This document shows, in pieces, positions 47,836 through 61,421 of a DNA stretch of 64,000 nucleotides. The stretch is from the NCBI GenBank assembly GCA_965221905.1, contig OZ244922.1, positions 1,184,001 to 1,248,000 on the forward strand, written 5' to 3'. Every line of letters starts with the position of its first letter. Positions within the stretch are counted from its first letter, which is position 1. The notes beneath the pieces were generated by a model, which made no database searches, was not told the DNA's origin, and saw nothing but the letters and a program-made list of their open reading frames with translations. The position numbers and the translations under genes are program-made. Source of the DNA: Chloroflexota bacterium. GTDB taxonomy: Bacteria; Chloroflexota; UBA11872; VXOZ01.

Positions 47836-48879
47836 CTATGCTGACGTTACTGTGATCCCGCTGCCTTCGGTCACGGAGCCGATGATCCAGAGCGGCTCGT
47901 TGGCGGTGCGGAAGGCCTCTTCGAGTTGGGCTTGATCCTGCGGGGGTACGGCGGCGAGCAGACCGCCGCTGGTCTGGGGATCGAAGAGGAGGGCGCTGAG
48001 TGCGGACGGGATTTCCGCCACCAGGGCAAGCAGTCCTTCATCCAGGAGAAAGTCGCGATTGCGGTCTAGGCCGCCCGGCACCACGTCGTCGCGGGCATAA
48101 GCCAACGCGCCGTTGAGCAGCGGAATTGCTTGTGCTGCAAATTCAAAGCGCACGTTGCCGTGGCGCGCCATCTCCATTGCATGTCCGAGCAGGCCGTAAC
48201 CGGTCACGTCGGTGCAAGCGTGGATGGTGAACTGTTGGAATAACCGCGCAGCGCCGCCATTGAGACGGCACATGCTGGCAACGGCTTCCTCTAAGTGCGC
48301 TGGCTCGACGCAGTCGCGCTTGTGGGCCGTGGTGATCACGCCGGTGCCGATAGGTTTCGTTAGGACTAGAATGTCCCCCGGCTGCGCGCCGGCTTTGGTG
48401 AAGATACGGTCGGGGTGAACTTGGCCCGTCACCGATAAGCCGTACTTCGGTTCCTCGTCGGTCACCGTGTGCCCACCGGCGATCACCGCACCGGCCTCCA
48501 GTACCTTGTCCGCGCCTCCCTGAAATATGCGGCTCAGGATGTCCAGGTCGAGGTTGTCGGGAAAGCCCGCGAGATTTAATGCGAAGAGCGGCTCGCCTCC
48601 CATGGCGTAGACGTCGCTTAGAGCGTTGGCAGCCGCAATCTGGCCGAAGGCGTAGGGATCATCTACCACGGGCGGAAAGAAGTCCGCAGTGCTGATGATG
48701 GCCTGCTCGTCGTTCATGCGATACACGGCGGCATCATCCGGCGCGGCTAAACCCACCAGGAGATTGCTATCGGATTGTGAAGGAAAGGCGCGCAGAACCT
48801 GCGCGAGCTCGGCGGGGCCGAGTTTGCCTGCTCACCCCGCACAAGCGGCCAGGCTGGTCAACTTTATCGGTGTTGCCAT
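47836..48879 (-). CDS. selD: Selenide, water dikinase, selenocysteine-containing (Sec16)
   Basis: MATPIKLTSLAACAG-TGA-AGKLGP in frame with DDAAVY, DFFPPVVDDP, ANALSDVYAMGG and DPQTSGGLL. Confidence 0.95.
48789..48805 (-). promoter_or_regulatory. Candidate SECIS hairpin of selD
   Basis: CGCGCAG-GTT-CTGCGCG starting 26 nt after the TGA; alternative hairpin CTCGG-CCCCG-CCGAG at 48808-48822. Confidence 0.5.
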
Positions 48880-59872: not shown

Positions 59873-59981
59873 ACAGGGGTGCGCTCCGTTGGCCGTGCGT
59901 TATGTCTCACATGTCGCATAGCTAAAGCCTAGAAGTACAGTTTTCGTTTCGGTTTTCGGTTGAGGAATCGGTCGCCCGGCA

Positions 59982-59990
59982 TGTTATACT
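59982..59990 (+). promoter_or_regulatory. Extended -10 promoter of ssrA
   Basis: TGTTATACT, 12 nt upstream of the tmRNA 5' end. Confidence 0.55.
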
Positions 59991-60002
59991 GAAGATATAC
60001 AT

Positions 60003-60376
60003 GGGGATGAGTGGATTCGACAGGGTTGGGAGGCTTGTAACTGCGAGCCGAGGTGCTATCACCCTCGTTAAACAGGTAGCAACTTTTTTAAGTGCCAACA
60101 AGCACGATTTTGCTCTCGCAGCCTAAATAAAGCTGTGACGTCCATCTGCTCTTCCTCCGGTGAGCGCAGCGTGGGCGACCTAACAGCCGGGGTGCCGCAG
60201 TCCATGCGGATAGAATCCGCCGCCTTCGGGGATTGCGAAAGACAAATGGAGGCTAGTTTCCAGAGGTTTTCGTCCGCTCGTGATCTGGAAATGAACTTCA
60301 AAAGCTGACTACGCTCGTAGAGGTTGCAGGAAGAACAGCTTTGGACGGGGAGTTCGACCCTCCCCCATCTCCACCA
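60003..60376 (+). ncRNA. ssrA: tmRNA; tag peptide (A)ANKHDFALAA at 60094-60126
   Basis: 5' GGGGATGA..GGATTCGAC, 3' GGGGAGTTCGACCCTCCCCCATCTCCACCA, tag ORF ending ALAA*. Confidence 0.95.
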
Positions 60377-60625
60377 TAGTCACAATTCACCGTGCGACCG
60401 CGCAGGAACCTTCCGGTGCGCGGCTTTGTGCGCATGCCAGCCCAAGTCCTCCAATCTGTTTCCTGGCTTTTTCTAGGTGAGAGGGGTGGGCGCAGGGGTG
60501 CTAGTCGCGGTGAGGTGTTTTCTGTGAGGCACAGGGCGAAGTACGCCGGTTTGTATGCTATAATGCCGTTGCGGAAGCGTATGTGATAGCCTTCTGCGAT
60601 TGGAGTAGAGAAAGAGAGCGATAAA

Positions 60626-60937
60626 GTGATTACGGTTACTGACACGGCGGCGGCTGAGTTGCAACGCCTTTTGGCGGGTAACGACATGGCTGATGCCAAG
60701 CTGCGCATCTTTGTGCAGAACGAGTGCGGCTGCGGCAAGGTGAACTTCGGCATGGGCTTCGACCAGCAAGTTGAAGATAACGATCAGGTGGTTGATTCGG
60801 CCGGTGTCGGCGTGGTGATGGACCAGCAGGCGTTCGCGGCGCTGGACGGCGCTTCGGTAGAGTATGTTAACGAGGGCGCGCGCCGCGGCTTCATGATAAG
60901 TGGTGTTGAGACCGGTGGCTGAGGCGGCGGCGAATAG
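60626..60937 (+). CDS. HesB/IscA family Fe-S assembly protein; ends at 60922 unless the TGA is read as Sec
   Basis: ITVTDTAAAEL, LRIFV, CGCG and LDGASVEYV motifs; GG-TGA-GGGE-TAG tail. Confidence 0.85.
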
Positions 60938-61421
60938 AAAGCCCGTGTAGGCTTTCAACAAGGTAGGATCGGACTTAGAGGGGCATTCTGCTCTTCCTGG
61001 CTGGACAGGGAAGTGGAGCGCTCCTCTTGTTTTGCTTTTAGATTGAGTGTTGGTAGTACGCGGGCGGTTGCGCGCCGGTTTGCACTGCACGCGCGAGGGG
61101 ATTTGCTGCTTTGTATACTCCTACGGGGATAACGAGATACTATGCGTGATCCCGCTTTCCCAACCCCTGCAGGGCTGACTTTCCACGTGCGCGCTTAGAG
61201 TGAGATGGTGTCTGCCAGGCAGTTCACCTTCACCCCGGCCCTTTCTCATCGAGGGAGAGGGGGTACGAGCGTACGCTTGGGAAACTTGCAAAGCAAGCGT
61301 ATCCCTTCGAGGGAGGGAAAGAGAGCACTCACGCCGGCCTTGGCTTTCGCGAGTCAGTTGAGATGCTCGCTGTAAGGTACGGAGCGGTTTTAGGACCCAT
61401 GAAACGAGCCACTACTTGCCC

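Follow-up and report, generated by a model that had tools for sequence, protein, structure and literature searches.

A candidate C-terminal selenocysteine at a cluster-ligand position of an A-type iron-sulfur carrier in an uncultured Chloroflexota genus

We analyzed a 64,000-nucleotide stretch (hereafter, the window) of the genome of a Chloroflexota bacterium (positions 1,184,001 to 1,248,000 of contig OZ244922.1, assembly GCA_965221905.1) and focused on a small gene that encodes an A-type iron-sulfur (Fe-S) carrier, that is, a protein related to IscA, HesB and SufA. The gene contains an in-frame UGA at codon 99, and comparison with its orthologs and homologs indicates that this codon is very probably recoded to selenocysteine (Sec) in a carrier of 103 residues. 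An earlier reading of the same DNA, made from the sequence alone (hereafter, the sequence-only reading), had proposed a 103-aa selenoprotein with Sec99 and a hairpin 3' of the gene acting as its selenocysteine insertion sequence (SECIS). That proposal gains strong support from the conservation of the UGA and of the short tail behind it, from a Cys-containing counterpart and from the Sec machinery of the genome. The features of the locus, with positions counted from the first base of the window, are as follows.

60626-60937, plus strand: coding sequence of the A-type Fe-S carrier, 103 codons, with a GTG start, UGA as codon 99 and a TAG stop, from the open reading frame (ORF) and its read-through translation
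60725-60733, plus strand: codons 34-36, Cys-Gly-Cys, of which Cys36 is the canonical first ligand Cys (Escherichia coli IscA Cys35) and Cys34 is extra
60920-60922, plus strand: UGA codon 99, predicted to be read as Sec; kept in 17 of 17 genus orthologs, TGC in the metagenome ortholog L063, and at the position of IscA Cys99
60923-60937, plus strand: post-UGA tail GGC GGC GGC GAA (Gly-Gly-Gly-Glu) with the stop codon TAG (60935-60937)
60937-60956, plus strand: candidate bacterial SECIS with a 7-bp stem and the loop CGUGUA, from folding, conservation and fit to the bacterial SECIS (bSECIS) model
60977-61039, plus strand: long hairpin with imperfect pairing (60977-61027) and, behind it, a T-rich run (61028-61039), from folding and a conserved block

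The ORF runs from the GTG at 60626 to the TGA at 60920-60922 and encodes 98 aa, and the context ETGG-TGA-GGGE-TAG given in the sequence-only reading is exactly what the sequence contains. A six-frame search that read through stops recovered an ortholog in each of the 17 genus genomes (this one included), with 80-99% identity. Every one of these orthologs has exactly one in-frame TGA, and it is always codon 99. In none of the 17 species is this codon TAA or TAG, although the second stop is TAG in some and TAA in others and its place varies by one codon. Behind the TGA, all 17 continue with GGC GGC GG(C/T/A) and then have either GAA, AAA or TCC followed by TAG, or a TAA or TAG directly, and an in-frame stop is thereby always reached within 3-4 codons. 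Only one of the nine post-TGA columns varies among the 17 species, and it does so as the synonymous wobble (C/T/A) of the third Gly codon; for comparison, 75 of the 98 third-codon positions and 58 of the 60 columns of the 5' untranslated region (UTR) are variable in the same orthologs. The five bases beyond the nine tail columns are variable again (identity 0.64). If columns stayed invariant as often as wobble positions do (23 of 98), the chance of at least eight invariant columns among nine would be P ~6e-5, by a hand calculation in which the columns were taken as independent.

The position of the UGA within the family points to Sec in place of a Cys. In an alignment with the solved structures of IscA, AQ_1857 and HI1723, Cys36 of the carrier corresponds to IscA Cys35, TGA99 to Cys99 and Gly101 to Cys101. 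Across 77 distant homologs, the TGA column holds Cys in 72, which is as many as the column of Cys36 (72 of 77) and close to that of position 101 (71 of 77), and the column of Cys34 holds Cys in 15. Codon 99 lines up with the leading Cys of CGCG, the C-terminal ligand motif, and the second Cys of this motif is replaced by Gly101. By the general criteria for selenoproteins, then, the UGA is aligned with a Cys of homologs and conserved coding sequence lies beyond it.

The alternation of Cys and TGA at codon 99, which the sequence-only reading had suggested looking for, was found: beside the 17 orthologs with TGA there is one, at a syntenic locus, that has TGC and likewise ends in GGGE. This ortholog, L063, is a metagenome contig that carries the 3' part of the gene (59% identity over 59 residues). 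Its product ends in ...GFRISGIESG-C-GGGE-TAA, with the Cys (TGC) aligned to TGA99 of the window and an identical tail, and it is followed by the gene for RNase HI, as in the window. No hairpin homologous to that of the window was found 3' of the Cys codon in L063, where the region folds no better than shuffled sequences (z 0.61). The TGA form of the genus and the TGC form of L063 are, on their sequences, a classical Sec/Cys pair. L063 also has a glutaredoxin gene (313-549, CQDC motif, PF00462) between the carrier gene and rnhA; in the genome of the window, neither a counterpart nor a remnant of it was found, whether between these two genes or elsewhere (E 1e-3).

The host genome has the complete pathway for Sec insertion. 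The sequence-only reading had named a Sec-type SelD, and the corresponding gene is indeed encoded in the window (~47935-48864, minus strand), with one in-frame TGA (48832-48834) in the context LAACAG-U-AGKLGP. The presence of selA, selB and selC was checked and all three were found: a tRNA-SeC with the anticodon tca, selB at 360.7 bits and selA at 565.6 bits. With selD, the set of four genes generally expected of a genome with selenoproteins is present. Across the genus, selB was detected in 16 of the 17 genomes, the one without it being 69% complete. Another TGA was found in the gene for FdhA, a formate-dehydrogenase-type molybdoenzyme (L083, G000:C1:2241293), in the context SCNRT-U-HAPS. Downstream of the selD TGA there are two hairpin candidates, with a loop CCC 12 nt and a loop GUU 27 nt past the UGA, and neither is clearly a SECIS. 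The FdhA hairpin (GUCGUC/GGUCU/GGCGAC), 12 nt past its TGA, is nearer in architecture to the hairpin of the carrier gene than the selD candidates are.

The hairpin at 60937-60956 was described in the sequence-only reading as a 7-bp stem with its loop 21 nt past the TGA, a G at loop position 2 and no U tail, and all of these properties hold. It has the sequence GAAAGCC/CGTGTA/GGCTTTC with a 6-nt loop and a folding energy of -8.6 kcal/mol. It starts at the last G of the TAG, 14 nt past the UGA, and its loop has U at position 3 after the G. The stem is followed on its 3' side by AACAAGG, without a U run. The bSECIS model, as stated in the Fig. 2 legend of PMC13188914, has a loop of 3-9 nt located 16-37 nt from the UGA and a stem of 4-16 bp. 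The model also calls for a G as the first or second base of the loop with a G or U next to it on the 3' side, and for a minimum free energy of at most -7.5 (PMC13188914). The hairpin fits every one of these quoted constraints (6 nt, 7 bp, G-U, 21 nt, -8.6 kcal/mol). It stands at a fixed distance from the TGA in 17 of 17 species, all of its pairs are formed in the 15 distinct rows of the alignment, and loop bases 1-4 (CGUG) are invariant. When covariation was checked, the hairpin was found to be conserved, and its changes were one compensatory pair (A-U in 8 of the rows, G-C in the other 7) and a single C-G to U-G change. The 20-nt sequence is unique in the genome, and allowing up to four substitutions adds a single chance match (4 mismatches); we thus rejected the idea of a repeat element. 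A search of the region with Rfam returned the tmRNA only and no match on the hairpin, a weak negative given that Rfam has no general bacterial SECIS model.

Transcription of the gene probably ends further downstream. The segment 60977-61039 folds into an unusually long hairpin of ~25 bp, and the block can be seen at each of the 17 loci compared. This segment probably acts as the intrinsic terminator of the gene. The fold of 60915-61050 as a whole has -53.4 kcal/mol (z -2.68). A simple promoter/terminator scan flagged neither the small nor the long hairpin. The small hairpin was also considered as an intrinsic terminator and rejected, since it lacks a U tract, was left unflagged by the scan and has a separate terminator downstream.

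The TGA form appears to be narrowly distributed. In 24 genomes from other families of the class, only stop-free paralogs with 23-34% identity were found, and a sample of 401 genomes of the phylum yielded the TGA form in 11, all of this genus. A scan of all species genomes with a profile of the clade returned 15 genus loci and one unrelated match. Profile searches of a set of 5.8 billion proteins, together with HMMER searches of 1.84 billion representatives, retrieved only genus members plus the protein P0014, and a second profile search of the 5.8-billion-protein set added no clade member beyond P0014. The clade thus seems confined to the genus, plus L063 and P0014. It was also anticipated that gene callers would miss the Sec form, and the databases bear this out: all 12 clade proteins retrieved end at or before residue 98 (window numbering). 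Three of the clade database proteins (P0010, P0011 and P0012), from metagenome contigs, turn into unrelated sequence partway and look frameshifted or chimeric.

The gene encodes an A-type carrier by both family and fold. The product scored 45.4 bits against PF01521 (Fe-S_biosyn), above the cut-off of 26.3, and 61.2 bits against TIGR00049 (iron-sulfur cluster assembly accessory protein; cut-off 58.8), with 61.1 bits for the read-through form. It fell below the cut-off of each of the equivalog models IscA, SufA and ErpA. An AlphaFold2 model built with 86 sequences as input had a mean predicted local distance difference test (pLDDT) score of 82.3. When this model was searched with Foldseek, the top match was E. 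coli IscA (1r94, template modeling (TM) score 0.80), and SufA (2d2a) and IscA-[2Fe-2S] (1x0g) were matched with TM 0.75 and 0.69-0.76, respectively. Binding and transfer of an Fe-S cluster are the predicted functions. The pairwise identity of the 17 orthologs at the first, second and third codon positions was 0.93, 0.955 and 0.71, respectively, and because the third positions are far more variable than the first and second, the plus frame is the coding frame. An antisense ORF at 60473-61090 was dismissed as spurious on the same grounds, the coding-type variation being in the plus frame. The host genome has a canonical A-type carrier as well (GGCSG...SCSCG). A third HesB/IscA-like paralog (L081, G000:C1:2973820-2974089; PF01521 36.7 bits) has no Cys at all. 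Given the canonical carrier and the Cys-less paralog, the candidate Sec99 carrier would be an additional, specialized copy.

The ligand layout that accompanies the UGA was described in the sequence-only reading as swapped, with CxC at the N-terminus and Sec at the C-terminus. The CGC near the N-terminus and the lack of a C-terminal Cys are both evident in the protein, whose C34-G-C36 is not followed by any further Cys up to residue 98. Three candidate ligands are thus left to the carrier, namely Cys34, Cys36 and the predicted Sec99. The arrangement of an N-terminal CxC and a predicted C-terminal Sec stands, and the N-terminal CGC turned out not to be special. The closest relatives outside the clade (34-44% identity; P0015-P0019, L068-L071, L075 and L076) have CGCG at the N-terminus and CGCG at the C-terminus, and CGCG at both ends was present in 7 of the 11 phylum loci read (6 of 10 leaving out L072 of genome G171, which is marked as unpublished). 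On these sequences, the N-terminal CGC is a trait of a wider CGCG...CGCG subfamily, found in Chloroflexota and elsewhere, and is not peculiar to the carrier clade, whose specific feature is (Cys/Sec)-GGG in place of the C-terminal CGCG. Because the N-terminal CGC is a mark of the wider subfamily, the apparent swap is, as far as the alignments tell, the loss of the third canonical Cys (now Gly101) in a lineage that already had the extra N-terminal Cys. The extra Cys34 is likely the third ligand and may make up for Gly101.

Comparison with known proteins places the new part in the position of the Sec and in the ligand layout, the superfamily itself being already known to contain selenoproteins. 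In IscA, SufA and ErpA (1r94, 1s98, 2d2a and 1x0g), which share the fold (TM 0.69-0.80), the length and the ligand positions of the carrier, the ligands are Cys35, Cys99 and Cys101, whereas the carrier would have Cys34, Cys36 and Sec99, with Gly101. Members of the CGCG...CGCG subfamily share its N-terminal C-G-C-G...(H/N)(Y/F)GMG motif but retain the two C-terminal Cys (GG-CGCG-H) and are free of in-frame stops. The stem-loop with G-U in the apical loop is reminiscent of the fdhF-type SECIS of E. coli, in which the stem-loop lies ~11-14 nt past the UGA. HesB-like selenoproteins were already known in the mid-2000s (PMC1794560), and the consulted part of PMC13188914 lists them as TIGR01911 (HesB_rel_seleno) with the motif UxGP. 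Like the carrier as predicted here, members of TIGR01911 are small proteins of the HesB/IscA fold in which a single Sec, encoded by UGA, replaces a ligand Cys, and gene callers cut them short. Unlike the carrier, they have the Sec of UxGP at the N-terminal ligand, where the carrier has Cys36 (CGCGK), its predicted Sec being at the first C-terminal ligand. The carrier scored 19.6 bits against TIGR01911 (cut-off 66.35) and 43.9 bits against NF038090 (IscA_HesB_Se; cut-off 85), or 43.6 bits with Cys at position 99, and none of 301 phylum genomes had an NF038090 member above the cut-off. The UXX-star families (PMC13188914) resemble the predicted Sec form of the carrier in having Sec 4-5 residues from the end, so that the SECIS hairpin must be in the 3' UTR, a placement that follows from their names and motifs in the part of that article consulted; they belong to another fold and family.

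In the literature, the consulted part of the review PMC13188914 has no mention of IscA, PF01521, TIGR00049, ErpA, SufA or NF038090, and HesB occurs there only as TIGR01911/UxGP. The main text of the BSepDB paper, whose family list is in the supplement, names neither HesB nor IscA. A form of IscA with a C-terminal Sec was not found in the main texts searched, the family tables of the BSepDB and Haft supplements being outside this search. With high probability, judged from the comparative sequence evidence, the carrier gene contains an uncalled Sec codon at a ligand position at which the superfamily is not known to carry Sec.

We infer Sec insertion, binding of SelB to the hairpin and the ligand role of Sec from these comparisons, and they suggest the following course of events. 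With UGA99 in the A site, the 3'-UTR hairpin 14 nt downstream would be at the mRNA entrance of the ribosome and would bind SelB-GTP-Sec-tRNA(Sec). Sec would be inserted, another 3-4 codons (GGG or GGG-E/K/S) would be read, and the ribosome would stop at the TAG or TAA. The separate long hairpin and its U tract, ~40 nt further on, would end transcription. The mature carrier would hold a [2Fe-2S] or [4Fe-4S] cluster, or iron, as a dimer and pass this cargo to apoproteins. Its ligands would be Cys36, perhaps Cys34, and the Sec99 selenolate, carried by a flexible tail rich in Gly. Given Sec insertion, homology tips the balance somewhat toward Sec99 as a cluster ligand. More tentatively, the system as a whole may be an A-type carrier with a part-selenolate cluster whose third ligand has moved to the N-terminal Cys-Gly-Cys. 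Its SECIS would lie wholly in the 3' UTR, and Sec would have arisen a second time, independently and at a different ligand, in the IscA/HesB superfamily.

Several observations weigh against this account, some of them against the recoding and others against the ligand role. The bSECIS model is loose: among ORFs of at least 100 aa in the host genome, hairpins of at least 7 bp that obey its rules follow 248 of 3369 TGA, 118 of 1746 TAA and 249 of 3331 TAG stops, that is, ~7% of the ORFs for each stop, and the hairpin alone is at chance level. Its significance comes from the comparison across the 17 species, in which the covariation amounts to one compensatory pair, probably a single event. The candidate hairpins of selD have no clear likeness to it. 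The first two Gly codons do not vary even at their wobble bases, and selection therefore acts on the RNA of the tail and not on the peptide alone. The only Cys-form ortholog found, L063, is a 5'-truncated fragment without the N-terminal motif region, and the next relative, P0014 (60% identity, ending in ...SSGGG-stop), is available as a protein sequence only. With Gly at position 101, the carrier departs from the three-Cys A-type signature (IscA Cys35, Cys99 and Cys101), and residues 97-103, alone in the AlphaFold2 model, have a pLDDT below 50, at which the ligand geometry is unreadable. The chance-level hairpin and the constraint on the tail RNA would suit an ordinary stop at TGA99, with a 98-aa protein that has lost its C-terminal ligands and the GGCGGCGG tract and hairpin as a conserved element of the 3' UTR that might stabilize the mRNA, bind a protein or cause partial termination. 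This reading also agrees with the gene calls and public records, in which the protein ends at residue 98, and weakly with the Rfam result. An ordinary stop is nonetheless improbable, in that the syntenic L063 has the tail as a clearly translated part of its protein, with the same CGGGE-stop, and the TGA is aligned with Cys in most homologs. It would also have to accommodate a TGA that stays constant while the second stop changes, a tail whose sole variable column is a synonymous wobble and which always meets an in-frame stop within a few codons, the full Sec machinery, and a hairpin without a U tract that has a distinct terminator downstream. Selection on the tail requires some read-through, and this could in principle occur without SelB, by a near-cognate Trp or Cys tRNA or a reassigned code, giving 103 aa without selenium. 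We regard this as very improbable: TGA ends about as many ORFs as TAG does, which indicates the standard code; position 99 demands a Cys-like ligand; only the TGA forms conserve a SECIS-type hairpin at the spacing of a SECIS; and the whole Sec pathway is encoded along with at least two other TGA-containing selenoprotein genes.

If Sec is inserted as proposed, the main functional rival to a cluster ligand is a redox role, in which GG-U-GGG would be a swinging arm that forms a selenenylsulfide with Cys34 or Cys36, and the protein would be a thiol/selenol oxidoreductase or a selenium/sulfur (persulfide) relay in place of a cluster carrier. The C-terminal Gly-Cys-Sec-Gly arm of animal thioredoxin reductase is a redox arm of such a type. 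Such a role would fit the absence of the canonical third ligand Cys at position 101, the tail, which is Gly-rich and predicted to be disordered, and the glutaredoxin gene directly downstream of the carrier gene in L063. It would also be in line with the redox function of most bacterial selenoproteins, whose Sec forms a pair with a Cys close by (PMC13188914). We consider a redox arm possible but rather unlikely, given a TIGR00049 score that passes the cut-off of this A-type carrier model, the Sec codon exactly at a cluster-ligand position, a number of candidate ligands that is still three (C34, C36 and U99), and no redox partner gene adjacent in the window.

If the selenoprotein carrier is real, the IscA/HesB superfamily has acquired Sec at two different ligand positions, and the genus and L063 would be a natural Sec/Cys pair for asking how a selenolate affects Fe-S binding and transfer. 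With the Sec codon only 4-5 codons before the stop, the truncated protein looks near full length, and searches based on truncation or extension tend to miss such cases. The gene would also add an example of a bacterial SECIS that lies wholly past the stop codon. More than 100 families of bacterial selenoproteins are already known, as given in the consulted part of PMC13326102; with so many families and a clade made up of one uncultured Chloroflexota genus and a few metagenome relatives, the wider impact is moderate.

The carrier gene lies between the genes for tmRNA and RNase HI, outside any isc or suf operon. The tmRNA gene (60003-60376, plus strand; Rfam RF00023, 168 bits; tag peptide ANKHDFALAA) is directly upstream, and it was very abundant among contigs assembled from RNA libraries. 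In all four RNA-library runs (all from relatives), contigs such as 60341-61300 and 59962-61247 spanned the stretch from the carrier gene through the small hairpin to the terminator region and had no differences from the window in 60905-61039; these contigs show no RNA ends, strand or level, and with DNA possibly present in the libraries they are no proof of transcription through the hairpin. They continue beyond 60977-61039 to about 61220-61300. A segment of ~40 nt at 61222-61263 drew matches in all four libraries from numerous contigs, short or unrelated, whose ends hang loose on either side. It lies in the ORF-poor gap before rnhA and could be a repeat of wide occurrence or a small conserved element.

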